DNA of 32,465 nucleotides, taken from the NCBI GenBank assembly GCA_023231475.1, contig JALJEE010000329.1, positions 1 to 32,465 of the forward strand. Direction: 5' to 3'. The stretch's first letter is position 1, and each line of letters begins with the position of its first letter. Origin of the DNA: Seison nebaliae. Its lineage: Eukaryota. Made by a program: the position numbers and the translations under genes. Below, piece by piece: positions 1 through 30,777 of this stretch. The notes under the pieces are model-generated. The model made no database searches. It had not been told where the DNA came from and saw nothing but the letters and a program-made list of their open reading frames with translations.

Positions 1-99
1 TGGAAGACGCTTTATCGGTGACATCTAATTTTGATTTGTCTTATCACGTTCCTGAAGCACTCAAGCATTTTATTGTAACGGGCAGGAACCTAATCTTAA

Positions 100-120
100 A
101 TAACTCCTTTAAGGAGTTAT
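100..120. repeat. Perfect palindrome ATAACTCCTT-T-AAGGAGTTAT (10-bp arms)
   Basis: Read directly. It lies next to the dispersed repeat copy at 125-197. Confidence 0.85.
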
Positions 121-124
121 CTTT

Positions 125-197
125 TTTTCTTTTTAATTTACCCCGTGAGGATTTGCTATAAATAAAAAAAAAATATAGCATAGCATTATCATTACAA
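125..197 (+). repeat. Dispersed repeat, copy 1 (similar to 31362-31422)
   Basis: TTTTCTTTTTAATTTaCCCCgtGAGGA..TATAAATAAAAAAA..ATAG.ATAG..ATTA...ATTACAA matches the segment at 31362-31422 in the same orientation. Confidence 0.6.
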
Positions 198-1914
198 TAT
201 AACGAAATTAAAAAAAATAAATTCGATTCTAAATGTGGAACTTTCGCAACTCCAAAGTAATTATTTCCAAAAAGAATATTACTTCAATGAAGTCTCCAAG
301 ATTAAGAAATATAATAATTTATAAGTTATACTTCGTTACTCATTCATTCTTAGTTTAATAAAACTGGAAGTTAATATTTCTTTCACAATTTTATTTATTT
401 TCATTCATAAATTATTTGAATATGATGAATAGAATGATAAGAATTCAACACTTGTTAATAAAATTTAGACACTTCATAATTATGAGACATTTCCAGATAA
501 TTTACAAGTAATGTAAATTGTGTCAACATAGAATAATAAAAAATTTTTGTTAAGATTATCAGAAATTTCAAATCAGAAATTTCATAGACATTTAGTCACT
601 AATTAAATTAACGTAATAATATAATTAATCAGAAGGTAAACGAGAAAAACTCGAATAAAATAATAAATGAGTAATAATTGTGTAGGAGTTGAAAAAGTGA
701 TGACGATTGGAACGGAATGAAACCAAATGAACATTAAAAAATATATGTTTCAGCTTCGTTTTACAAAAAAAAACAAGAAGGAGGTCGATAAGAATAAAAT
801 TGGTGTAAAATTTAGCGAGTGAATGTGAGAGAATGGACAGATTGAAAATTAATTGGAAATGTTCAATATCGTTTGATGGAATGATCTGAAAAAAATTATT
901 AGTAATTCAAATCGAATGACGAGTGTCTAGACGAGAAGATTCTAGAAAGAATGTTGCGCCAGAAAAATTGTTTTATCTTTAAACAAATATCAACTTGGAT
1001 TGATCGGTTAATTATTTAGACTTTCTTCATGGACGAAACTTGTTTGTTTAGAGATTAAATTTATTTTTATTTGTTAAGTAACCGTATTATCAGTTAACGA
1101 GTAGATATTAATGAGAAATTTCTCGATTTTTAATTTATGAAAGATTTTATGTTCGATATTTACATGGGACAAGATGCTAACGTTTTAAAAGTAAGTTTTC
1201 ATTATGATGGTAATGAAATGTTGTTGATGAATGGTTTGACGATTTTAACGTAATAATAATATCTCCCGATGGTTAATTGGCTAGAATAATTCTTTTTCAT
1301 TTCATTCGTTCCATTGATAATTTGATTAATTTCTTCTTGAATAATTTCCTCGAATGTTTTCCGTTTGGCAAATTATCATAATTTTAGTGCTAATTCAATA
1401 TATGTCTCTATCTACAAAAACAATTTTTTATAGTTTTCTTCTCACTTCTATCAACAAAATTATTCTATGGAACAGTTCCCAAAGGACAATGTTTCTTCCT
1501 TCTTGAAATATAGAGTTATTGTATTATTAACAGTTGTTTTTCTATTGACTATTAGTTGGAAGAATGTTAGTTGTTTATGAACTACAAAGAATTATATTGG
1601 TGTAGTAGAACAACAAGTTTGATTAATAATGACAATCGCTAGAATTCGCAGATGACCTTCCAAGACGAAATTCTTTAATCGTCAAATTATCATTCTTATA
1701 ATCATCAGCTAATGATAAGTAGCGACGAATGAGAAAATGTTTTTTTCTCAAGAGTATTCTCAATTTCTTTCTCCTAATATGTATTTTGTAATTTTTACAA
1801 GTACATGTAATCTTTAATTCGTATATCTTCTCATTCTTCTCAAACTATTTCTTTCCATCATCATTTTGTGCAATTACTAATTTTTTCTTCTTCAGATTTA
1901 TTCCTCCCATAATC

Positions 1915-3198
1915 ATGAATGACGATATTAAGAAATATGACGAAGAGTTACGTAATGAAGCTTTGTCTTATCACATTGATCCAGAACCGGGTAAATTGAG
2001 TGTGATATCGAGCAAGCCACTTCATACTCAGAAGCATTTGTCTTTGGCTTATTCGCCTGGAGTGGCTTATCCGTGTTTAGAGATATCTAAAGATCCGAAA
2101 ACTTCTTATCAATATACATCTCGTGGTAATTTAGTTGGAGTGATTTCGAATGGAACAGCCGTTCTGGGATTGGGAAACATCGGAGCAGCAGCATCAAAAC
2201 CAGTGATGGAAGGGAAAGCGTTATTATTTAAGAAGTTTGCAAATATCGATTCATTCGACATAGAAGTTGAGGAGACGAATATCGAAAAATTTGTTCAAAT
2301 TGTTAAAGGAATAGCAATAACTTTTGGAGGTATAAATCTGGAAGATATTAAGGCACCGGAATGTTTCGAAATCGAACGACGCCTCATCGAAGAATTAGAT
2401 ATTCCAGTCATGCACGATGATCAACATGGAACGGCTATTATTACAAGTGCCGCATTAATCAATTCATGTCGATTATTAAAGAAAAATATATCGTCATTGA
2501 AAATTGTTGTTGTTGGTGCTGGAGCGGCAGCGATTCCATGTGCTCGAATGTACAAGACAATTGGAGTGAAAAATATTTATATGATTGATTCAAGAGGATT
2601 AATAACTGACGATCGACAGAATTTAACTAGTTATAAAAAAGAATTCGCTTGTCCATCAACCGAAACGAAAGAATCAGTTTTTCAAAATGCTGATGTTATT
2701 TTAGGATTAAGTTTCCCCGGTACTTTCACCATCGATGATATTAAAAAGATGAATAAAGAATGTATCATTTTTGCGTTAGCTAATCCAACACCAGAATTGT
2801 ATCCGAATGAAATTAAAGAAGTACGACCAGAAGCTATCGTTGCAACAGGACGAAGTGATTTCGATAATCAAGTGAATAATGCTATTGCTTTCCCTTATAT
2901 CTTCCGAGGAGCGTTAGATTGTCGAGCGAAACATATTAATATGGAAATGAAAGTTGCAGCAGCTGAAGCAATTGCCGAATTAGCACGAGAAGAAGTACCA
3001 GCAATGATTCGTCAAATATTTGGAAAGAAGATATCATTCTCAAAAGATTATATCATACCGAAACCGTTCGATAAACGTCTATTAACGAAAGTATCAATAG
3101 CAGTAGCGAAAACAGCTCTATCTACCAAAGTAGCACCGTCAGATTTCGATTTAGATGAATATCAAACAAAATTAGAAAAAATGGAAGAAACATCATAA
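1915..3198 (+). CDS. maeB-like: Bacterial-type NAD(P)-dependent malic enzyme (MaeB malic-enzyme domain without the PTA domain), 427 aa, intronless
   Basis: Motifs [81 protein letters not shown] and [11 protein letters not shown] are typical of the prokaryotic small-subunit/MaeB family. They are not those of animal ME1-3. Confidence 0.93.
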
Positions 3199-3257
3199 GA
3201 AATTTTAATTTAATCGTAACAAAATAATTTAGTGTTGTTGTGAGAATTTTCTTTAAA

Positions 3258-4978
3258 TTATTCTTCTCTTTTCATCATTTCTTCAATCTCGTCAATTGTT
3301 CTCGGCACTTTCGTTAGTAATTCATTCCCGTTATAATTTATGTAAACATTGTCTTCAATTCGTATCTATATAAATAGAGTTATTGAAAAGTATTTTTTAT
3401 AATAAATTTTATTATTCTTTTATTACTAACACCACCAAATGATCGATATTCATTAATTTTATCGAAATTTAAATATTCTTTCAATTCTTCGTCCATTTCC
3501 GCTTCTTTCAATAAATGTTCGATGAAATAAATTCCTGGTTCGATGGTGAGAACCATTCCCTTTTCCAACGGACGATTTAATCGTAATGATTTCAATCCTC
3601 GTTCTGTCGATCTCTTCTCATCATTATGATTCTTATATCCACCCACATCGTGAACATCCAAACCCATCAGATGTCCCAAACCGTGAGGCATAAAAATACC
3701 ACCAATTCTTTTCTTAACCATGTCAGATATGATGGAATTTTCCTCTTCATTTTCCTTATCCATTTCGTATGGATCTGATCCATATGGTAAACCGTCGACG
3801 GTGGTACATTCCCCTTCATTCGTCTTCTTTATTGGAAGATGATTTTTTGTCTTCTTTACGAGACCTAAACGGAATAAATGTCGCAATTGAATGGCGTCAG
3901 CTAAACAATGTAGTTTCGACCATTCCATTCCTGGTTTGGCTACTTTGAACACTTGTCTATTCGCTTCCAAAACTGCCAAATAAATATTTTTTTGTTTCTC
4001 TGTAAATTTTCCGTTTGCAGGAAATGATGTGGTAATATCGGAAGCGTATCGATAATATTCACCACCCATATCGAAAAGACACATATCATTATTTTTAATT
4101 AATTTCGAATTAGGCTTACCCGAATGACCATAATGAAGGATTGATCCATTCGTTCCAGTTCCACAAATGCAGGTATAAGAAACGAATCTCATTCCTCCTT
4201 TCGAATAACAATAATGAAGGAATTCACTTTCCATTTCATATTCATATCGTCCCACTCGAATATTCTTCATCACATGACAATGCGCTTCACTGCTGATTTT
4301 GTTCGTATATCTTAAAATTCTCAATTCTTCATCTGATTTTATCAATCGACATTCCACCATCACTCCATGAAGAATCTTCTCATCAATCTCAACATTAGGA
4401 AGACCTTTCAAATATTTCTCATCAATTTTTAATGGCGTTTTCAATCCACTATCTACATTTCTACCATTCAAGAAATAAAGTTTCTTCACTTCTAATTTCT
4501 CTTTCAAAAATTCCACCATTTCACAATCATATAAACAATCCGCTACGGAATAATATTCCTTAAATTGTTTATTAGTCATTAAAGCACCCATCCATGTGGC
4601 ATAAGCTTCAGGTAATTTAGGAGAAAATAAGAATGATTTACCACTTCCCAAATCAATGGCACCGAAAAATCCAGGATCCGTAACACCAAACGCCCAATGG
4701 AAGAAAGTTTCCTGACGGAATAGAATGTCGACATCACTACAATAGATCGGTTGTTCCTCGCCTCCTTTCAACCAAATGACATGGCCAGAAAAATTGTATT
4801 TATCATCTGATGATATCGTTTTTTTTATTGAAGCCATTAATCTCTTTCGATTGTTACCACATAAACCTTTAATATCGATCGGTAACGTATCATTACCCAT
4901 CCAATATTGGGATCTATTATTAGTGGACAATAAGAAATTTCAGTAAAAACTATCAAACTTTTTTTCCGTTTCTGACAT
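3258..4978 (-). CDS. PEPD: Xaa-Pro dipeptidase (prolidase). Exons 4978-4959, 4913-3431, 3365-3258
   Basis: Motifs FRQETFFHWAFG, LHYGH, FDMGGEY..YASDIT, PHGLGH.MGLDVHDVGG and LTIEPGIYF. A 45-nt intron supplies the ATG exon (MSETEKK). A 65-nt intron restores the conserved GG|IRIED...LLTKVPRT C-terminus. Confidence 0.93.
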
Positions 4979-5628
4979 TTTTTTAAAAATTTCTATCTAA
5001 TTTAAGAAATCAAAAAATATTGTACATTTCGTAAAACAAATTTTATTCAAAATAAATCGAGACGAACTAAATTACTTGGATTACTATATAAGTTTCGAAA
5101 GTAAAAGGGAAATCTCATTAACTTTATGTTTCTTAATTTCGACACTTATGAGAGGAATGAGAGGAAAATATTTAGAAATTGTTAGTTAATTATAAATTGT
5201 ATAAATATGACATTTGTTTGACGGGAATTGGGATGATGAGATGAATTAAAGTCCATTACCTCGAAGTCAATGAGATAAGTCAAATGACTTATCAAATCGA
5301 CATGTTTAAAATTGAAATTTTTATGAAATATATACAAAATTTACTTTTATTAAATTAACAAAAAATAAAGTTTTCAAATTTTAATTTAACTATCTTCATA
5401 AAGATCGAAATTGAAATAGAATAAGAAAATAATTATGAATATTTTTCAAATGTATGAAGATATTATTAAAAAATGAAAGCCAAATTTTTAAATCAGAAAA
5501 TTCTAGTTAATTTGATGAATAATAACCGATGAGTTATTTTTGGGTGACTCTATGGTGATTCATGTTACTATGACGATTATATTGCCATCTTCAGAAACTT
5601 TAAAAAACAGAATACGCATGAAAGTCAG

Positions 5629-8600
5629 ATGAATAAAATTGAAGATTATCATATACTTCGAGTCATTGGCGAGGGGTCATTCGCCAAAGTATACAGCGGA
5701 CGAAAAGTTGGTGGTCTAAAAGTTAGTTCTCAACTTTGTTCGAGATTGACAATGTAATTGAATTAGATTGTTGCTTTGAAAGCGATAGTGAAGAAAGGTA
5801 AATCATTGAAAGATTTGAAGACATTGAAAAGTGAGATTGATGTTTTGAAGAATGTTAAACATCCGAATGTCATTCAATTATTCGATTGTAAAGAGAATTC
5901 GGAAGAACTTATTCTCGTAACGGAATATGCTGAGACGGATCTCCATACGATATTGAAAGATGACAAATTTTTTGAGGAAACTGAAGTGAGGCGATTAACG
6001 AAACAATTAATATCAGCTCTTCATTTTCTCCATTCCAATCGAGTACTACATCGTGATTTGAAACCTCAGAATATTCTCTTGTCGAAAGATGGCAATGTAA
6101 AACTATGTGATTTCGGTTTCGCTCGTTTGATGAGTTTCGAGACGATGGTCGTCACCTCAATAAAAGGAACTCCCTTATATATGAGTCCGGAATTGTTGGA
6201 AGAAAAACCGTACGACCATAATGTGGACTTGTGGGCTTTGGGCTGTATCATATTCGAAATGAGAATAGGTCAACCTCCATATTATGCGACAAATTTGTAT
6301 CAATTAATGAAAATAGTTTTGAAAGAAAATATCAAATGGCCATCGAAAGATGTCATGAGTTCTGATTTACAAAGTCTATTAATGCAGTTATTAGAGAGGA
6401 AACCAGAGAACCGATTAACTTGGCCACTTTTATTAGATCATCCTTTTGTGAAGGATGATGGTGATATAATTTTACATTCGTTCGACATATCGAAAGCTCC
6501 TTTAACGGCCGAATTAACAGAAGAACAACGTAATCGAAAGAAGAAACAAATCAAACAATACGAATTAAGAGGATCATCTAATTCGGTATTGGCTAAAGCT
6601 CGACGTCATTATCAGAATGAAACTGAAAATAAAAAGAAACAGAAATTACAATTCGTCGAGAAACAGAGAGAACAGCAAAAGAATCGTATTGCTCAATTAG
6701 CAGCGAAGAATTTTAAATCGGAAACGAAGAAAACAGAAACTGTGAAAGTAAACAAATTAGATGAGACTTTGAAGAAATCCGATTTGGACGAATCGACAGC
6801 GACATTGGCACCTCAAAATAATGAGCAAGAATTAGATTCGATTGATTTGGAACAGATAAATTATAAATCGAATAAAAAAGAATCGTCGTCAGCACCAACA
6901 ACAAATCGTAAAGCTGAATCTATTAAGAATGAGGAAGGGGATGATGATAATTATGAATATATCGATCATGAGAATCATGAAGGAATGGTGAGGAATGAAA
7001 CGAATGAATGGTATACATTATTTGAACGACTAATGTTACTTCATAATGATATGGCGACAGCGGAGACGGATGAAGGAGCCTTACAATCCTTCCAAGAAAT
7101 GGATTCGATAATAATTCCCTTAATATCCAACCAGAAATTCATTGAACAATTTAATGAGATTCTCGAACATAATTTCTTATCATTCAACGAATCCATCAGT
7201 CGATATTTGAACAACGGTCAATTGGAACAATTGATTAATAAGGACCATGTCCAAATGACGAGTAACTTCTTAACGAATCTCTTACATATTGCTCATCTGA
7301 TGTTTCTCCATCTTTTGAAACGACAACAAATGGAAAATGATGATATATATGTGAAACAATTACTCGACTTTCTATACGAACAACAGATATTTGATTTGAT
7401 TGTGAACGAAATCCATTTTCTCCTTCATGGTAATGAGACGATGGATAAACAAATGAATCGAAATGATATTCAAACACTTCTTAATCAAATGCTATTAAAT
7501 GTTCCGAATATTCGAGATGTTCTCTTCGAATCAGTCAACTTCTGTCAACTTTTCCAACAAATTGCACCGTTAGCTAATTTATATTATTCGACGTTAACAG
7601 AATCGAATTATAATATGAAATTCGATCGTGAAAATGATTTCATGAAAAAATTGACAAATCGACATATCTCCAATTTATTGAAATTATGTCGGTCAATGCA
7701 ATCAATATGGAACTTATCGATCATGATCAATATCGATATGTTTCTCTATCAATATTCATTATGTATATTCATTCAAATATTCGAACAAATCGAACAACAA
7801 CCGTTGACAATCGCCAACGAATTCTTCAGTTTCATCTGTCAAACTGACAAACAATCAAAAACTGATTCAATTACTCAATTGAAATCGATTATTACAATCG
7901 CCCTCATTCCATTCACATGGCAAATGACGAGAAATGAGAACAATAAATTTTCGTTGATTCAAACAACGAAAAACCTGGGAAATTTTCAGGAAATCCAATT
8001 CGAAAAATTGTCGTTAGAAGAATTGGAATGTGAGAATATCACTCAATTTAATCATCGATTGAACACCGTGAAAAATTTAGCGGCGACATTGTTAACTGCA
8101 ATGACATTTATGCAAATCGATCATCGAATTGATATAGATCATTATTCGAAAATTCATCCGAATTATTCGAAAGATATCGAATATTGTCGTTGTCAATTCC
8201 GAAATAATATTCAAGAAATATTTGAATGGAAATCTAGCGAGAGATCATTCCCGATAAATTATTCGCAGAAATATGAAATGACGAAAATCATCAGCAGGAA
8301 ATTTGCTGATGGACAACTAAATATTTCAGATTTGTTATTCGATCTCCATCAACCACTCTCCACTTTATCGACGATATTCAAATTTTTGTATTCCTGTTGT
8401 CAGACGTCGAAAGAATTCTGTCGCTACACTCAACGATGTCCTTTAAAGCGATTAATGTTGTTCACATCGAATGTTCCAAGTACAATAAATTATAATAACA
8501 ATAAAGAAATAAGAAATTTATCTTTGCTCCAATATTTTAGTTTGCGACTTTTGGTTTCTCATTTTATTAAGTTTTGAGGAATTTTTAACATTATTTCTTT

Positions 8601-11600
8601 CTAGAGTTCTGCTCAAAACGAGATGGATAACGAATGTTTAAAATTGAGATTGGAAGCATATGAATTATGTACACATTTATATACCGTATGTATATTGAAC
8701 AATCCTGAAGATATTTCTCAAATGTTAAAATTTCCATTTATTTCAAATTTTAATTTCATTTCCAATTTTAGTGATATCAAAATTTGTAATTCACTTTATT
8801 TGAATGGGAGGACGAGTAATATTTGTGGGGGAACATCATTATTATATGGAAGTATTTTAAAGATTATCGATAATCAAAACAGTTCATCAATCCTCATGAA
8901 CATGGGGAAAGGAAAATCGAATAATCTGTACGAATTCAATGAGAAATCAGATCCATTATTCCAATATCTGAACTCGAACGAAGACATCGATATTATTCGT
9001 GATTTGTTAGATGAGAATCAAGGAATTATTATCAATCAAATGGATATTATGAGATCGCTGACTATCGCATTAGCTCCAACAAAGAAACGGACGAATTCTT
9101 TCGAGGAACGAGATTCATTAATCGATGAAAATGAATATATCAAATTATTGATCGATGGAAATTGGAGGAAATTATTCTTTCATTATTATGTCGAATCGAA
9201 TAAATCGAATAATAGTGAACGACGTGGTAGTACGTCGACGGGAAGCAACTCTTTAACATCATCATCATTGGTGGTACCATTGATTCCATTTCCATATAAA
9301 TATGGTGTTGTTGATGGAATTATTTTATTATTACATGCATTATTCGTCGATGAGAATGATTATCTGATGCAGAATGCTTTATTATTCCAAACGGATATTT
9401 TGAATTTACTCGCACAGAAAATTTATCCGTTATTATCATGGTATCGGAATAAAGATTCTTGTGACTTACCACAAAATATCAGTCAATTAAAATATCGATT
9501 CGATCCGTTGTATATGAATGCAATGTCAATTCTCCCCTTATTTCAATTCATTTTTAAGATTTGTGATGATTCTATGAATAATTGTCATACTTTACTTTTC
9601 GGGTTATTCACCGAAAACAAATCGGAGGAAGTCATGTCAACCGATCGAAGTGATACTGATTCGGGAATACAAAATGAATCGAATGCAATTAACGATAATA
9701 ATTCATCTTCATCTTTATGTTTATTTGATCTGATTACGTTAATGATCGATCCAAATATTCTCATCAGTTTATTATTCGAATTGAATGAATATGAGAAGAT
9801 TTCGCAACGATTATCCAATGCTTCAATTACACCGATCTCTTCCAGAATTGCTAATGATTTGATCGAATTAAGAAATCCATTTATGAATATGACATTTAAT
9901 AATTTCTTAAAATTCTCTCATATGCACAATGTTGGAGTGAAGGATTTGTCCGAAAAGATCGTTTCCAATTTATTTCATTCGATTTCCATTATTCTTTGTA
10001 TGCCATTCACTTTATCATATAGCGGTTTTCATTCCTTTCAATTTTATTCTTTTTAAGTTTATATTATTTTTATTTCTTCAGATGAATCGATGAAACAATT
10101 AATTAAACAGTATTATATTGATAAGAAACATTTCCTCTTATCGAATTGTCTGAAGACAATTATCGTTTTACATAATCGAAATATTCCATTCGATATCAGT
10201 GAACCATTGACGATGATGTCGTATCTTTTACGTTTATACGGAAAGGAAATATTGGAACATAATCAGAAGCATTTATTTCAAAGGAAAAAACGTGAAAGTC
10301 CATTTATCAAAGATGTGAAAACGTTCAATAATCTCATTACAAAATCACAAATTATAAAAAAAATATTTTTGTATATTTGGATTATTAATCGATGTTCTAC
10401 ACAAAACACTCAGACGAAAAATAAAAAAGTGGAAATGTATTCGAAGAAGATTTTCAATAATGTTGGTGAATATGAACAGAATTTCTTCTTGACTACCCGA
10501 ATTAGTGAAGACACGTTGAAAGATGAAGATTTTTCAGATTTATCTCAGAAAAAGGATTTGGAGAAATCGATAAGATTACAAAATATTATTACATCCGATT
10601 CATTATCAAAATCATTAATCTTTAGTCTATTTCAAAATATATCAGATGATATGGAAATGAGTGACGATGGTAACGGAAATAACAAATTATCAAATCCAAA
10701 AACTTCATTACGATATTCGTTGCTGAAAAAGAAACTGAATAATGTGAATGATTCTAATATCATTCAAAAATCACTTTATGATTTCCTCTCCATCTTGGAA
10801 TATTTGTTGAGATTGTTCGTGAAGAATCCATTGCACGAAATGACACAACAAAAGAATGATTTAAAAGAGAATGTTTCAATGATTATTTTCAATTCATTTG
10901 AAACGTTCAAATCCATCATCGATTTACTCACAATGGGAATTGAAGGAAAAAATAAAGTTTTATTATTGTCCTCCATCTGTCAACATTCCGATGAGAATCT
11001 AATGGCAATCTCATTTTCTATCGTCTCCCAATTGATTTATATCCAATCAATAATTAATCAACGAATAAATAATAAAGAGAAATCTCAATGTATCTTACAT
11101 AGATTGATGTCAACAAGTGATCTTGAGAAATATTCTTCATTCTTTTCCTTAGATGACCATCCGTTCTCCATGGATATTATCGTGTCAAATTATATGCCAT
11201 ATATTCTCAGCAAATCGTCTCAATCCAAATTATCGATGAAAGTTCAATTAATATTCCATTTATTCATTTTTAAATTTATCATTATTAATTTTTTCTTCTT
11301 CTAGTGGAGTATTATTGTTCTTTATGAAATGATTTATTTTATGGAACATTTATATTACGTGAATAAGAAGATAGTTGAGAATTATTTCATTTTCGAATCA
11401 ACTCCATCCACAACGATATCGAAAAACAAATTGAATATATTCCAATTATACAACATACTCCAATTACCGTTAGTTGATGATATTGTGATGAAAGTGAAAA
11501 TCAAATCATTGGGTTAATAATAAAATTTTCCGATAATGATTACTTAACATTCTCCTTTTCAGAAATATTGGCAAAATTAGCAATTATCCTTCCGGATTTC

Positions 11601-12572
11601 TCGAAATATGTTCGGAGTTCGAGTAGATCGTCGAGTGGTCGACCGACAAGTTCTCGACCGGTTTATCGTTCAAGAAACAGTGAGATTTCGAAAGATGAGA
11701 AATGTATGAATGATCATTTTGCTAATTCTCAAATATTTCGACAACTTTCTCGAATATTTATCTTTCTTATCAGTCTATTACCGGAGGAGAACATCTCCGA
11801 ATCGTACATATCGAACGAAGAGATTCGATTACAAATTTGTATTTTGAACGTTCTCGTCAAATATTGTGAAAGAGATGATGCCATGATCTTTGTTTTTCCC
11901 ATATTAATACAGACGAATATTATGAAATTATTACATTCGGATGACGATTCTCAACCAACTCATTCACGGAGAACATCAATCGATTCAATAAATGGTGAAA
12001 AGACACCATCGATTTCCACTCTAAATCGATTACATGTCAGATTGAAAGTATTATTTAATTATTATATGAAGAAAACTGGAAGATTACGAGCATCTTCTCA
12101 AAAATCTCTTAATGGAATCAAATCCACCATCTCATCATCTTCATCATCAATTTTATTACATCCTGCAAATGATTCCATAATCCATTCAACTGATTCCAAT
12201 GTAACACAAATTACCGGTACCATGAGAAAATATGCAATTAATCGACCCGATTCCTGTAGAAGTGACACATCAAAATCTAATACGAACTTAACAAGAAAAC
12301 CACCCGCCAAATCGAGAACGAATATCAAATCTGCGAATAATCGTCAAAATTCTTCTATGGTTTCTTCCGTTTCTTCATCGAAACTTACGACAGATACATG
12401 TCGATTAGATGATGGGAATTCGTTGAAAATTGAAGGAAAATCAATAAAGAAATGTTTAACAGAACGACGAATACTTTCCGCTCGTACTCCCAGATCGATC
12501 GCTTCTCCCAGAAGTAGAAGTCGCTCAAATTCATCAGCATCAGATCGTCGTCCAAATTTATCAGTTCGGTAA
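5629..12572 (+). CDS. STK36: Fused/STK36 Ser/Thr kinase, ~2,200 aa. Exons 5629-5721, 5767-8553, 8605-8723, 8772-10024, 10082-11241, 11305-11512, 11563-12572
   Basis: Exon 1 supplies IGEGSFAKVY. It is followed by VALK, HRDLKPQN, DFGFAR and the STK36-type TSIKGTPLYMSPELLEEKPYDH..DLW. Five ORFs join in frame through GT-AG introns of 45-63 nt. The 8724-8771 intron is 3n and stopless, so it is less certain. Confidence 0.85.
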
Positions 12573-15076: not shown

Positions 15077-15790
15077 ATGATCGATTACGAAATATACTTT
15101 CTCAATAAGAATTTCTCACATTATTTCGAACGATTCAATCTGATTTGCAATCTCAATAAAGTGCCAGAGAGATATCGTTCCGAAATATTGTTCAGTCATT
15201 TATCGGCTGCAGCTATGCAATTCGTTCTGAGGAAATGTAAGACGATTTCTTTCGTCGAAACATATACCTCATTCGTAAATAAACTCTTTAAAGTTCTCCC
15301 AAATAATCCGATAGAAAAAGTAAATCAATCCTTCTACAACACGAAACAAACCAATAGTGAGAATGAGATGGAATATCTCTCCAGATTATTCCATTTAAGT
15401 AATCGATTACTCTACTCTCAAATTAATGCTAATATTAATATGGAAATATTTAAACAATTCATTTTTGGAATGAATAACAAATATTTACGATCCACCATCA
15501 TCGATTCGAATGTGCGAGATCTAGAATCATTGGAACAATTCTTAGACAAACAACCGCGAAGAACCAGATCGAAAATACGTCGGATGATTACATCACCAAT
15601 TGAATCGACACATGGAATGTTCAAACGCTCCACTAGTCGCTTAAGGGAATTTGCAAGAAGTCGAAGTCGAACTAAATCGCCAAAACCGAATATTCGACGA
15701 GTGGTTGATGAAAATTATTCGAATAAAATAATTTCCGATGATAAGAAAAACGGTTGGATTCTTCCCGATTCAACCAAAAGTTTTTCTTAA
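15077..15790 (+). CDS. Solitary Ty3/gypsy-type Gag (capsid)-like protein, 237 aa
   Basis: N-terminal F.HYFERFNLIC.LNKVP....EILFSHL, an MHR-like FYNTKQ...E...EYLSRL..L, and QFIFGM....LR resemble retrotransposon Gag capsid domains. The ORF is intact, with AATAAA at 15813 and 15832. No pol gene or LTR is nearby. Confidence 0.72.
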   Translation: MIDYEIYFLNKNFSHYFERFNLICNLNKVPERYRSEILFSHLSAAAMQFVLRKCKTISFVETYTSFVNKLFKVLPNNPIEKVNQSFYNTKQTNSENEMEYLSRLFHLSNRLLYSQINANINMEIFKQFIFGMNNKYLRSTIIDSNVRDLESLEQFLDKQPRRTRSKIRRMITSPIESTHGMFKRSTSRLREFARSRSRTKSPKPNIRRVVDENYSNKIISDDKKNGWILPDSTKSFS

Positions 15791-16377: not shown

Positions 16378-18141
16378 ATGATTCGTTATATTCTATTGAG
16401 TTGCGTACTCTCTTTTATTCCGATCGCTTCCAAACGGGTCATCAAACTAATCATCAACGACAATAATGATATAGTGAAAGTGGAGAATTTGTTGAATTTG
16501 AATAAAATCAATTGGACCGAATTGAAAGAGGTCGATCTGGATAAAATCGAAAGTCTCAAATACAACGAGCATATCAATCGATATGTCTCCATCTATTTCT
16601 CTCCGATGGACACCAATTGGACTTCCATCAATTACAAACGGAAATTATTGGCATCAATTCGATACGAACATAACAACGGATCTAGCCAAATTCGAAATAT
16701 CAATTCTAACGATTTCTCATATTTATTGAATTATGTTAGAATTTGTCTTCTTTCGTTTCTTGAAAATTCCCTAAAGGATTTATTGAACAATGGAACAGCG
16801 AGTAACTTAAACGAATGGATTGAAAGCAAATCATCTGAACAGATACTCATACTTTGCGTCTTCAATCGATATGTGATGGAATTCAATAAATTCTTGTTAT
16901 TTCTCAATTCATCATCGTTGACGTTGCCCTATAAAGTTTGTCTTAACCAAATTTGTGGGCTCAAATTAAATTTTAAATTATTTCCAGTTCTATTCAAATG
17001 TTTTCAATTTATTACAAAACCTGTACGTTTATGAAAAAACGGAAAGAAATTTTATGGATATCAAACGACAATCTCATGCTATTTGTCAGACATGTGGTAT
17101 CTGTCATCATAATAAAACGAGAGTTAACCCGAAGATCAAACATATGAATATGACCATAAAAATGACGCAATCTAAAAACCATAAAAATTCCACTCATATC
17201 ATCTCTAAGGAATTCAATTCGAATTGGTTGTCTATCGATTTTTCTCAGACATTTACTGAAGACGAATATTGTTTGACATTGCCGTTATTGATCCATAAAC
17301 AAGAAGAATATCTATTTGAACAAGACATGAGTCATTCGAAGAATTTCTATGAAATTTGTTACAAAAATTTCACATATTGTTCTTCCTTCAATTGTGTCGC
17401 CTATTTTCGAAGTGTGCAAAAATACGAGTCATGTTGCAAGAAGAATATTTTCTTCGATCGAAAGTTAAAATTTTCTAGATTTGTTTTGTCAATTTCAATA
17501 ATTTTCCAGATTGGTTGAATGGTGGAAGAAGTCGTCAAATGACATTATTAACAAATGTAATTCGACTTTAAAATTATATAATTATTGCAAATTTATTTCA
17601 ACACCTTTCTCCAACTCCAATTCCAAAAATATCGTTTATATTCAATATAATAAGTACATCGAATGGATATCATTAGCTATCATTGTTCTCATAACATTCA
17701 TCATCGTATTGTTGTTACTCTATTGTTGTTTATCGTTCGTTCGACGATATAGACAACGATATCCTTTCAACACCAATCGATCGACGGTTAGACACATTGA
17801 ACGAGTTGCAGCACTTTCCTCCACTGATGATCACCGAGAAGTATCATATGTTCGGAAATATCCACGTCAATTTTGAAAACTTATTAATTTTCTTTCTCCC
17901 ATTTTTCTATCCTCTCCATCACAATACGGTTATAGAACAACATGAAAAGTCGTCGATCGAATCCATCCTTTTTCGAAAGATTCAGACGATGGAGGTATCA
18001 AAATCGAAGAACACCCTTCAATTATGTTCCTGTATCTCCAAATATAGCAGGTTAGATTCTTACTAAAATTTTCTATAATAATCGGAATTATAAAAAGAAA
18101 CGAGATTGATGGATTCGTCGGATGAGGAAGGTCAAAAATGA
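16378..18141 (+). CDS. Orphan single-pass type I membrane protein. Inferred exons 16378-16734, 16777-16935, 16988-17463, 17510-17849, 17936-18050, 18098-18141 (an unspliced form would stop at 17876)
   Basis: Signal peptide MIRYILLSCVLSFIPIA, Cys-containing ectodomain, and TM WISLAIIVLITFIIVLLLLYCCLSFV followed by RRYRQR. Three ORFs join in frame through GT-AG introns of 52 and 46 nt. The first intron and the 3' exons are less certain. Confidence 0.65.
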
Positions 18142-27800: not shown

Positions 27801-28793
27801 CTAAGAAATTGTTGTTTCGTTTTGTCTCGTTGAATATTCAGAGAAATTAAAATCAGTTTCATTATTGAATTCATTATCATCCATTACTATTTTATTTCCA
27901 TGAAGTATTCCATATTTTCTTAACTCATGATGTTCCCAGAACTCGTAAAAATATGACGATCGATGGTTTGGAATTTCCGATTGTTTATTTCTCATAAATT
28001 TTATCGTATCGTCAATCCAACCAATATATCGATGAATTGATGTAAATATAGTTATCATCCGATGATTTTTTGTCATAGTTCCAATGGCGGAAAAACGACC
28101 ATATTTATTGCCACAAAATATTGGACCAGTCGGGTCAACCATCTTTGACGCTTTCCACCAACTTCCTCCCAATACACATAATTTATTTTGTTGATTCTTT
28201 CCGAATTGATCACAAATAAAATTGGAGACAATTTTAACATAACGATCTTTTAATATCCATCCTTTTTTCTCGTCAGCCACCCAACTAGCTATCCAACATT
28301 TCTTCGAAAATTGATGATTCTCATAAGCTTTCGGTAAACAAATTGGCATATTCGACGACTTTTTAGTTAGCCTTAAAATCGCTATATCATTATCAAAAGT
28401 TTCAATATCGAAATTTTCATGCACATACATATCGACAATTCCATAAGTTTTATTTTGGGAGAATTTCGATTTGATTCCATCCATCACCACTGTCATTGAC
28501 GTAATGTCCACTTCATATTTTGTTACTAAGTTCATCAGACAATGAGCTCCAGTCAAAACAAACTGTTCACTGATGAGTAAACCTCCACAAATATTCACTC
28601 GATTTATTTGAACAGATACGACCCACGGCCATTTTCCTTCTGTAACGAAATTTCCACGAACAATACTGTGATCAAAGAAACGGTTACAATTTCTTCCCAA
28701 ATTAACAATGCCGCATGTGGTAGAAAGAGTCGATAGAGGATCGATAATTAAATTGAAAAGAATAAAAAATAAGAAATTTTTGAGTTTTCCCAT
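27801..28793 (-). CDS. Secreted trypsin-like serine protease homolog, predicted inactive
   Basis: Signal peptide, CG, IVRG, WPWVVS, CGG.LI, TGAHC, NDIAILRL and PICLP. The GDSGGP motif is replaced by VDPTGP. Confidence 0.88.
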   Translation of the reverse strand: MGKLKNFLFFILFNLIIDPLSTLSTTCGIVNLGRNCNRFFDHSIVRGNFVTEGKWPWVVSVQINRVNICGGLLISEQFVLTGAHCLMNLVTKYEVDITSMTVVMDGIKSKFSQNKTYGIVDMYVHENFDIETFDNDIAILRLTKKSSNMPICLPKAYENHQFSKKCWIASWVADEKKGWILKDRYVKIVSNFICDQFGKNQQNKLCVLGGSWWKASKMVDPTGPIFCGNKYGRFSAIGTMTKNHRMITIFTSIHRYIGWIDDTIKFMRNKQSEIPNHRSSYFYEFWEHHELRKYGILHGNKIVMDDNEFNNETDFNFSEYSTRQNETTIS

Positions 28794-28851
28794 TTTTATT
28801 ATGATTCAGATGGAAATTAGAAAATATTAATTGTTTAAATTTCTTCATTTC

Positions 28852-29709
28852 TCAATTTCTTTCAAGTGATAAACTGACGTGCATTATATGATCCCAATAT
28901 TTCTGGAAATACGGAGATTTTCGAAAATCAATTATTGGTCCTGATCGATCCACATAATTAATTATTGATTCGATCCATTTTAAATAATCGATAACTCGAA
29001 AAAATATCAACATATTATCTGTATTGTTAGAGAGAATTCCTATGAGAGTATAATGTCCATTTTTCAATGGAAACATTATCGGTCCGCCAAAATCTGAAGG
29101 TGTTGGATGATAATTCTCCACAAAAGAACAAAAAATATGATTATCATTTTTCTTTTGATTATGTGCTTTCCGACAAATATAACTGTCATAAATGGTCATT
29201 TTCTTCTGTTTCAAATGAAATTCATGTTCTTCGTCCTTCTTTCGTTGCCAACTCAAAAACCAACAGCCATCTCTTTTCATGACATAATCTCGAACATGTG
29301 GTAAACAAACCGGCATTTTCTCAGTATCATATTGAACACGTAACAGAATTAATTCATTAGTTCGATTAGTAGTCGGATAATGAAACATATCTACTACAGT
29401 ATTATTCTGATTATTTGTGGAATTTATAGTTATTTCTCCTAGTAGGACCGTTATTCTTCGGATGTCAATCATCATATCATCTCTCTTAACACAATTCTCA
29501 CTAGTTAGTATTAATTGTTTACTAATTATCACTCCTCCACATACGTGGAATCCATCGATTTGAATAGATATCATCCAATCCCATTCTTTATGGAAACTCC
29601 TTTTACCCTCAAATTGACCACATTTTAAAGGTAGACCATTCCCTACTAAAATGACGAACGAAAAAATTAAGAATATTTTATGAAAATTGTATAAATAGTG
29701 GATCCTCAT
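28852..29709 (-). CDS. Secreted trypsin-like serine protease homolog, predicted inactive (tandem paralog)
   Basis: Signal peptide, CG, WDWMISI, CGGVII and PVCLP. TAAHC becomes TSENC, DIA becomes ELI, and GDSGGP becomes SDFGGP. Confidence 0.85.
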   Translation of the reverse strand: MRIHYLYNFHKIFLIFSFVILVGNGLPLKCGQFEGKRSFHKEWDWMISIQIDGFHVCGGVIISKQLILTSENCVKRDDMMIDIRRITVLLGEITINSTNNQNNTVVDMFHYPTTNRTNELILLRVQYDTEKMPVCLPHVRDYVMKRDGCWFLSWQRKKDEEHEFHLKQKKMTIYDSYICRKAHNQKKNDNHIFCSFVENYHPTPSDFGGPIMFPLKNGHYTLIGILSNNTDNMLIFFRVIDYLKWIESIINYVDRSGPIIDFRKSPYFQKYWDHIMHVSLSLERN

Positions 29710-30131
29710 TGTTTTAACGTCGAATGATTTAGATTTTAACTAATAAAAAATGTCATTGTTCAACATTTAACTCAATCTCATATTCCTTTTTTGAAAAGAT
29801 TTCAAATATAAAAAAATTTTCCCGATCTTTATGTAAACACTTCAAAAACATGAACACAAAATATTCCATTCATTCGACTGTCATTTATCGCTAAAAATAC
29901 AATGACAATTATGAATGAGATTGATACTATTAGATTCACCCCAAATTACTTTGCCCCCCCAAAAAAAAAAATTGAAGAGAAAAATAAGATTTTAAGGGGT
30001 TTTTCCTCATTGAAAATAAGCGAACTAGGGTTCATTCGAAAGAGCATAAAATTCTCTTTCGAATGCATATCATATCATCTAAAAAAATTCAATATTAATA
30101 TTAAAATTTTAGGATACAAGTTGGACTTTTA

Positions 30132-30777
30132 TTTTTTTTCGATTTCAAAAAATTCAACTATTTTGAATTGCTGTGCGCTAGATGTTACTTATCCAAATTT
30201 GATAAGTCAGGCATAATTAGATAGCCACGTTCAAGTTCTATTGCCAAAAAATTTTTTGAGTTAAAATTTTAATTTTTAAATAGAAATTAAGGCATTTTTT
30301 AAAGGTAACTTTTGTCAAATTTCCTTCAATTTTTCTATATTTTTAGAACTCATTAAGGGAATAAAATCCAGACACATCGCCGTAAAATCTTGTCATATCA
30401 GGAAATTTCTACTTTTTATTCCTACATTAAGAAATTCCTATATGTCGTAAAGAGAAAAACTACATGTGTCTGGATTTTATTCTCTTAATTATTTTTATTA
30501 TTATTTATTAATTAAAACTCCCGTCGATATAAATCAGAAAAATAAGATCTTAATGAGTTCTAAAAATATAGAAAAATTGAAGGACATTTGACAAAAGTTA
30601 CCTTTGAAAAATGCCTTAATTTCTATTTAAAAATTAAAATTTTAACTCAAAAATATAGATTTGGCAATAGAACTTGAACGTGGCTATCTAATGATGCCCG
30701 ACTTATCAAATTTGGATAAGTAACACCTAGCGCACAGCAATTCAAAATAGTTGAATTTTTTGAAATCGAAAAAAAAA
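30132..30777. mobile_element. Foldback/MITE-like element with long inverted arms (~30132-30377 vs ~30464-30777)
   Basis: Near-identical reverse complement over ~245 bp, e.g. GAATTGCTGTGCGCTAG / CTAGCGCACAGCAATTC and TAGCCACGTTCAAGTTCTATTGCC / GGCAATAGAACTTGAACGTGGCTA. No transposase. The repeat is certain; the TE identity is inferred. Confidence 0.75.

Follow-up and report, generated by a model that had tools for sequence, protein, structure and literature searches.

A bacterial-type malic enzyme gene in the genome of the rotifer Seison nebaliae, probably acquired from Campylobacterota

The closest described counterparts of the protein discussed here are the stand-alone malic enzymes of about 420 amino acids found in Campylobacterota, where those of Sulfurimonadaceae (P0007) and Halarcobacter ebronensis (P0090) are 65-66% and 64% identical, respectively, to a malic enzyme (ME) that the rotifer Seison nebaliae encodes. 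The Seison protein is like these enzymes in its length, domain pair and C-terminal end, in a 2-residue deletion and in the residues K241 and R234, and it is unlike them in its animal genome and host codons, in the splice acceptor that precedes it and perhaps in being extended at the N-terminus. Another eukaryote with a small malic enzyme of prokaryotic type is Entamoeba histolytica, whose enzyme reportedly has a transfer history. The Entamoeba protein (3NV9) nevertheless belongs to a distant subgroup, with 34% identity by structure, and its host is a protist. Animals themselves have ME1, ME2 and ME3 (3WJA, 9AYI, 8EYN; pigeon 1GQ2), which resemble the Seison protein in the reaction and in active-site geometry (PMC7902834) but are homotetramers with subunits of about 550-600 aa and are 20-21% identical to it by structure. 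In the hybrid MaeB enzymes of Escherichia coli and Bdellovibrio (8JZO, 9M2I, 6ZN4, 6ZN7), the catalytic domain is about 55% identical to the Seison protein, hook region included; the latter, however, has no PTA domain, so that neither acetyl-CoA allostery nor a hexamer is expected.

Gene transfer is well known in the desiccating, asexual bdelloid rotifers; Seison lives in the sea and reproduces sexually, and transfer candidates might be listed in a 2023 annotation paper on its genomes. Among Syndermata, foreign genes in rotiferan genomes have been described for bdelloids and acanthocephalans, with non-metazoan candidates put at 4.8% in Pomphorhynchus, 6.4% in Rotaria and 1% in Brachionus (PMC7310846). 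In the Syndermata transfer literature that was examined, Seisonidea are unscreened, and neither a Campylobacterota donor nor a malic enzyme is named. Seison, a marine rotifer, is described as living on Nebalia crustaceans (PMC8351084), and in the available text of that paper the word "horizontal" is used solely for plot lines. In a term search, "malic" was absent from the main text of PMC8351084, PMC12256650, PMC7310846 and PMC12690905, as well as from two supplementary files of PMC8351084 and one of PMC12256650, while PMC13320244 names malic enzyme solely as a ligand class. No paper describing the Seison ME gene, or any animal malic enzyme of prokaryotic type, was found in a literature that included few subscription papers. 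The transfer of bacterial genes to rotifers is a known process, of which the Seison gene is a well-supported new case.

The DNA analysed here is a stretch of 32,465 nucleotides of contig JALJEE010000329.1 (hereafter the window), in which the gene and its surroundings are arranged as listed in Table 1; the protein database lists the contig's products under Seison nebaliae, as SNEBB_009617 and SNEBB_009618. The best explanation of the locus, to which a probability of roughly 85% is given, is that Seison nebaliae carries an intact bacterial-type ME gene that goes back to an old transfer from Campylobacterota, has taken on host-like codons, probably undergoes splicing at the 5' end and is predicted to encode an NADP-dependent enzyme. 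The habitat of Nebalia is low-oxygen, sulfidic sediment, where Campylobacterota are common. The source of the gene would have been DNA of a bacterium living in sediment or as an epibiont, with Sulfurimonadaceae or Arcobacteraceae as its relatives; the gene would have gained a host promoter through the splice acceptor at 1895, and purifying selection would have retained it.

Table 1. Features of the malic enzyme locus and its neighbours (positions in the window)
Feature	Positions	Strand	Remarks
First coding exon, public gene model	951..1006	+	Reproduces the stored 452-aa product exactly
GT-AG intron, public model	1007..1895	+	889 nt; donor GTT as in host introns
Splice acceptor (cis intron or trans-splice site)	1874..1895	+	Branch-point-like motif, pyrimidine tract, CAG
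Malic enzyme ORF	1915..3198	+	427 aa; stand-alone small-subunit, MaeB catalytic-domain type, without PTA domain
Gap between convergent stops	3199..3257	.	59 nt; bridged by single contigs in 4/4 runs
Animal PEPD (Xaa-Pro dipeptidase)	3258..4978	-	Introns 3366-3430, 4914-4958
Protein kinase gene, intron-containing	5776..12572	+	Pfam: Pkinase only; exons of 330-930 codons, short introns

The original prediction described an intact frame of 427 aa, and the ORF indeed runs without a single stop or frameshift. A Pfam search of its product finds PF00390 (102 bits) and PF03949 (91 bits), both over cut-off, and this domain pair within about 420 aa, with the end falling after the hook region, places it among the stand-alone enzymes of Campylobacterota type. 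When solved structures were searched, bacterial MaeB scored 470-474 bits and large-type chains 32-66, in line with the earlier assignment to the MaeB type rather than to ME1/2/3; the protein does not group with the animal malic enzymes, which at 42-66 bits lie far below bacterial MaeB. A monomer structure model (pLDDT 76, pTM 0.78, with residues 1-31, 43-80 and 106-125 below 50) likewise has the MaeB catalytic domain as its best fold match (E 2e-45), human enzymes following at about 1e-20. The NCBIfam model for hybrid MaeB, NF009501, is covered over positions 3-423 of 764, with 499.6 bits against a cut-off of 1178. Two other identities were considered and rejected, namely a hybrid MaeB (ME-PTA fusion), as the C-terminal PTA domain is missing and the stop comes directly after the ME domain with PEPD 59 nt on, and an animal ME1, ME2 or ME3, as the protein has neither their subunit of about 550-600 aa nor sequence closeness to them.

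It is next to inconceivable that the gene came down by vertical descent from a small malic enzyme of ancestral eukaryotes or of mitochondria and was lost in other animals. Entamoeba does have an enzyme of the small type (3NV9), and distant eukaryotic copies could hide below the best 120 of 8,000 candidates; yet the Entamoeba chain reaches 231 bits where bacterial MaeB reaches 474, the ME gene product is 65% identical to bacterial proteins while the adjoining PEPD is 44-49% identical to those of other animals, and ME carries a phylum-specific indel.

The guess that the gene resembles those of Campylobacterota has been borne out by the best matches, by three trees and by this indel. The best 120 of 8,000 candidates consist of the protein itself and 119 matches at 60-66% identity, among which nine have Campylobacterota names, two are called "bacterium" and none is named as a eukaryote; no full-length match in these best 120 exceeds 66%. 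Neither a 50%-cluster search nor a look-up by name of 10 proteins, eight from its 150 matches and two from the best 120, showed a eukaryote, though most are unnamed. The best three of 80 named genome loci are from Sulfurimonas, Arcobacter and Halarcobacter, and Campylobacterota predominate in the three best Atlas clusters. A C-terminal end like that of the Seison protein is seen in 4/4 Campylobacterota loci, while 73/76 others have a tail of PTA length. A homologue was found in 194/251 Campylobacterota genomes, and in the 150 that are listed the open frame measures 403-482 aa, which leaves no room for a PTA domain, so that all are stand-alone, in keeping with the earlier remark that the length and PTA-less C-terminus recall this phylum. 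The 2-residue deletion, which lies before the NADP-binding loop, is shared by Seison and 27/33 Campylobacterota loci (one intermediate, five unscored) and by 114/118 top matches (the remainder unscored except one), and is found in 0/76 other loci (70 with the long form, six unscored). The direction of transfer, from bacterium to animal, follows from the distribution of the gene, in one animal as against most of a bacterial phylum. No second seisonid copy above 72% identity was seen among 120 listed short proteins, and none of 80 metagenome loci was more than 66% identical; a control search with PEPD gave no close seisonid copy either, so that these blanks carry no information.

In trees of hand-chosen subsets, all unrooted and composed without eukaryotic small-type enzymes, Seison falls into a 39-row clade with rows of Arcobacteraceae and Sulfurimonadaceae type (86 rows, quick LG+G4, SH 95), a 24-row clade (57 rows, careful LG+G4, support 94/66) and a 16-row clade (35 rows, quick C20 mixture, SH 95), the last with 11 named or phylum-drawn Campylobacterota and four unnamed rows. 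Its sister differs among the three trees, with moderate support. The end branch is long (0.47-0.60), and none of the starred clades that span half the rows or fewer in the careful tree includes Seison, so that more than one donor family is possible. In AU tests, whose groups were chosen once the trees were known, a position with Bacteroidota (p = 0.0014) and one with six unnamed hybrid MaeB representatives (p = 0.0055) were rejected, and a tree holding all 39 stand-alone Campylobacterota-type rows together without Seison was not (p-AU 0.073).

A foreign gene whose immediate donor was not a member of Campylobacterota, being instead an unsampled bacterium or a protist that owned the gene first, is unlikely. 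It would account for the long end branch, for a best full-length identity of 66% in the best 120 of 8,000, for the sister position to the whole group that the last AU value allows, and for two unnamed stand-alone representatives inside the Campylobacterota part of the tree. Against it stand the shared indel, the equal length and the same C-terminal end, together with the three trees and the mainly Campylobacterota composition of the three best Atlas clusters.

The neighbour of the gene was claimed to be an intron-bearing animal PEPD, with 59 bp from stop to stop, and both points hold. The PEPD stop occupies 3258-3260, two introns are given in Table 1, and the public model, which begins at 5118 on the minus strand, adds a third (4997-5067); among the best 120 matches listed for PEPD, those named by organism are all animal, at 44-49% identity apart from the self match. 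The kinase gene beyond it is one that we take to be STK36/Fused-like, and its 5' part shares read-built contigs with ME. In 4/4 runs, the whole ORF, the junction, PEPD and the kinase start lie on one contig, namely X1 (118-9000, depth 14.1), X2 (1317-9000, depth 27.8), X3 (118-8277, depth 27.9) and X4 (1313-9000, depth 27.1), each with 0 mismatches and 0 gaps. These are short-read contigs over 1-9000; no more than two samples and two studies lie behind them, and the assembly itself may come from one of the four runs. In X2-X4, the adjoining contigs have depths of 25.5-27.3, near that of the ME contig, which answers the earlier call for coverage equal to the flanks, and the stretch is present in 5/7 sequencing runs listed, with no RNA run named among them, an absence that carries no message about expression. 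The ME gene is in the animal genome, linked to PEPD.

A chimeric assembly or epibiont contamination is barely credible for this locus. Wild-collected animals were sequenced with bacterial DNA present (PMC8351084), ME lies near a contig end as the first gene, with host genes on one side only, and the linkage comes from short-read contigs only. Nevertheless, a single unbranched contig per run joins ME to PEPD and the kinase in 4/4 runs at neighbour-like depth, so that the junction does not look like the assembly error the original prediction allowed for, and codons and CpG are unlike those of all 33 bacterial homologues compared. There is also no bacterial gene beside ME in the window, where the longest frame at 1-1900, ME's own apart, has 93 codons. 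A repeat search around ME showed no element ends, just short AT-rich chance repeats, and the window has no Rfam match and no tRNA.

Other features of the window may be recorded here. At the contig end, 1-175 is a multi-copy repeat with many loose ends and a depth of about 400-1,100, compared with 14-28 for single-copy DNA. Over 3271-3371, in the last PEPD exon, runs X2 and X3 have an additional low-depth contig (about 4) with 9 differences in 101 nt, whose probable source is the genome of another seisonid, for instance the second lineage that PMC8351084 describes for this species. The other genes, by Pfam, encode a rhodopsin-type receptor, a TGF-beta ligand, Tam41, a Sec1 protein, a WD40 protein and two trypsins. 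The last are tandem intronless trypsin-like genes, 58 nt apart (27801-29709, minus strand), and, by eye, both are without the usual catalytic serine motif. An intronless ORF of 237 aa at 15077-15790 (plus strand) has no Pfam match and, judged by eye, may be similar to a retrotransposon gag-like protein. At 16378-17876 (plus strand), a gene with short introns encodes a cysteine-rich, single-pass membrane protein with a signal peptide, its first ORF having no Pfam match. Within 30079-30560, an identical 23-nt acceptor-like string occurs at 30346 and 30560 on opposite strands, which suggests an inverted repeat or a small foldback element.

The composition of the gene is evidence of host residence that is independent of the read contigs. 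With 13 host exons and 33 Campylobacterota homologues as controls, the codon log-likelihood of ME, host versus bacterial, is +0.13 per codon, within the range of the 13 host exons (+0.06 to +0.21), while 20/20 Campylobacterota genes with GC3 <0.30 are negative (-0.04 to -0.21). The host-like codon usage that had been claimed therefore stands up to low-GC bacterial controls, and low GC alone is not sufficient to produce it, because these controls are equally AT-rich. The CpG observed/expected ratio is 1.44 in ME and 1.45 in the host, as against 0.11-1.20 in the 33 bacterial homologues, and CGA makes up 9/15 arginine codons in ME, compared with 41% in the host and 8% in the bacteria.

Relative to the bacterial homologues, the Seison protein has retained 119/122 near-invariant columns and 23/100 variable ones, and it departs from the bacterial set at 12 positions where at least 95% of that set agree. 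Fourfold sites are saturated, with 29-39% identity to six close homologues. Residues kept while synonymous sites became host-like would point to long purifying selection, at least partly after the transfer, although part of the amino-acid divergence could predate it and have arisen in an unsampled donor. The description of the gene as ameliorated fits these data, as synonymous sites and CpG are host-like and the frame is intact. That the insertion is real but silent, or has died recently, is very unlikely: recently silenced genes can remain intact, but here the synonymous sites became host-like while the frame and 119/122 invariant residues were kept, and a strong acceptor stands at the right place.

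This acceptor has its AG ending at 1895, 19 nt upstream of the ATG at 1915. With matrices built from 18 introns of 40-75 nt, hand-picked within the window, it scores 13.29, which is rank 4 of 2,566 unannotated AG sites and better than 17/18 leave-one-out scores of host acceptors; an acceptor as strong occurs in 0.9% of 676 overlapping intergenic 60-nt windows. Because it is so strong, something is very likely spliced onto 1896, be it an exon, coding or untranslated, or a trans-spliced leader, the donor being less sure. Rotifers have been reported to use a spliced leader, Seison not being mentioned in the available text (PMC3795323). An acceptor closely preceding the ATG is not a general property of host genes, since among 13 start sites surveyed (two of them mis-set) only ME, PEPD and the TGF-beta gene score at least 8. 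The gene had been called intronless, which is right for the ORF itself and probably wrong for the gene, given the acceptor at 1895 and the 889-nt intron of the public model.

In this public model, the stored product of the locus (P0002) is 452 aa, 25 longer than the ORF, and is matched exactly by exon 951-1006 and the GT-AG intron 1007-1895. Together with 1896-1914, the exon encodes a 25-residue basic, amphipathic N-terminal extension with a net charge of +3 and a peak hydrophobic moment of 0.78, which is a possible candidate for a mitochondrial presequence. The introns of the window (for example 3366-3430, 4914-4958, 8554-8604 and 11242-11304), at 40-75 nt, mostly begin with GTT and not GTA or GTG, an unusual donor preference. 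A GTT start is seen in 17/18 hand-picked host introns against 39% of background GT, a count that is partly circular, as GTT-like donors were preferred during picking.

It is possible, though doubtful, that the same transfer was followed by the gain of this intron and presequence, with exon 951-1006 being real, so that the enzyme would be imported into mitochondria and take part in anaerobic malate dismutation. This reading is a special case within the best explanation, and its mitochondrial import is the main alternative to a cytosolic role. The public model has precisely this exon and intron, the donor is GTT as in 17/18 host introns and in the public-model PEPD introns, nothing like the +3 amphipathic extension occurs in 12 bacterial alignment rows, and malic enzyme is placed on the anaerobic map of invertebrate mitochondria (PMC6856725). 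On the other hand, the intron of 889 nt is more than 10 times as long as the 40-75 nt of the 18 host introns. Its donor at 1007 is just third of 82 GT sites scored at 200-1860, where others score equally well and none at the usual intron distance from 1895 is good, and an in-frame coding exon is achievable from 17 GT sites upstream of ME. The same annotation also gives PEPD a short upstream exon, which adds 23 residues before the likely start at 4978 and, as in ME, has an acceptor shortly before the ATG. A short first exon on both models suggests a habit of the gene finder.

As for the function of the enzyme, the key residues of Bdellovibrio MaeB have been described as Y52, K107, E149, D174 and the motif 207-212, with D233, R242, K250, N300 and V330 as further ones (PMC7902834). 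The aligned equivalents in Seison are Y46, K101, E143, D168, G201-A206, D225, R234, K241, N290 and V320, and all ten sites are identical save one Ser-to-Ala change in the nucleotide motif, so that the catalytic Tyr, Lys, Glu and Asp and the GxGxxA nucleotide motif are present in the ORF protein. K241, R234 and D225 correspond to the NADP-specifying K250, R242 and D233 of Bdellovibrio, and K241 and R234 are both found in 151/151 compared sequences. K250 has been shown to bind the NADP phosphate, with glutamine in its place in an NAD enzyme, and residues outside the pocket also shape cofactor choice (PMC9764414). Taken together, these residues speak for NADP rather than NAD as the cofactor.

By homology to the MaeB catalytic domain, which in isolation is an active dimer insensitive to acetyl-CoA (PMC7902834), the Seison protein is predicted to be a Mg- or Mn-dependent homodimer that converts L-malate to pyruvate, CO2 and NADPH in an NADP-dependent reaction. 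In this putative mechanism, Y46 would come from the partner subunit, K101 and D168 would serve as acid/base, E143 would form part of the metal site, and K241 and R234 would select NADP. Acetyl-CoA insensitivity is predicted because there is no PTA domain. The likely role would be a cytosolic supply of NADPH and pyruvate, and, within the best explanation, translation from the ATG at 1915 combined with such an NADPH-supply role is given somewhat better than even odds.

A bolder proposal, that the bacterial ME replaced the animal large-subunit enzyme, acquired both an intron and a mitochondrial presequence, and today carries out an anaerobic malate-to-pyruvate step, is rather unlikely. The Seison genome has been reported to be without about 40% of metazoan core genes (PMC12256650). 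Since ME belongs to central metabolism and animals own a version of it, the question is whether the bacterial gene is an addition or a replacement; if replacement were true, a bacterial enzyme would have displaced a core animal one, and the case would be much more interesting if Seison were without animal malic enzymes or if the extension were mitochondrial. Through its 5' acceptor and possible presequence, the locus would offer a simple example of how a gene of bacterial origin becomes connected to expression and targeting in an animal. An adapted bacterial gene that is anchored in the Seison genome means that the uptake of such genes extends to this lineage, with Campylobacterota as the probable donor.
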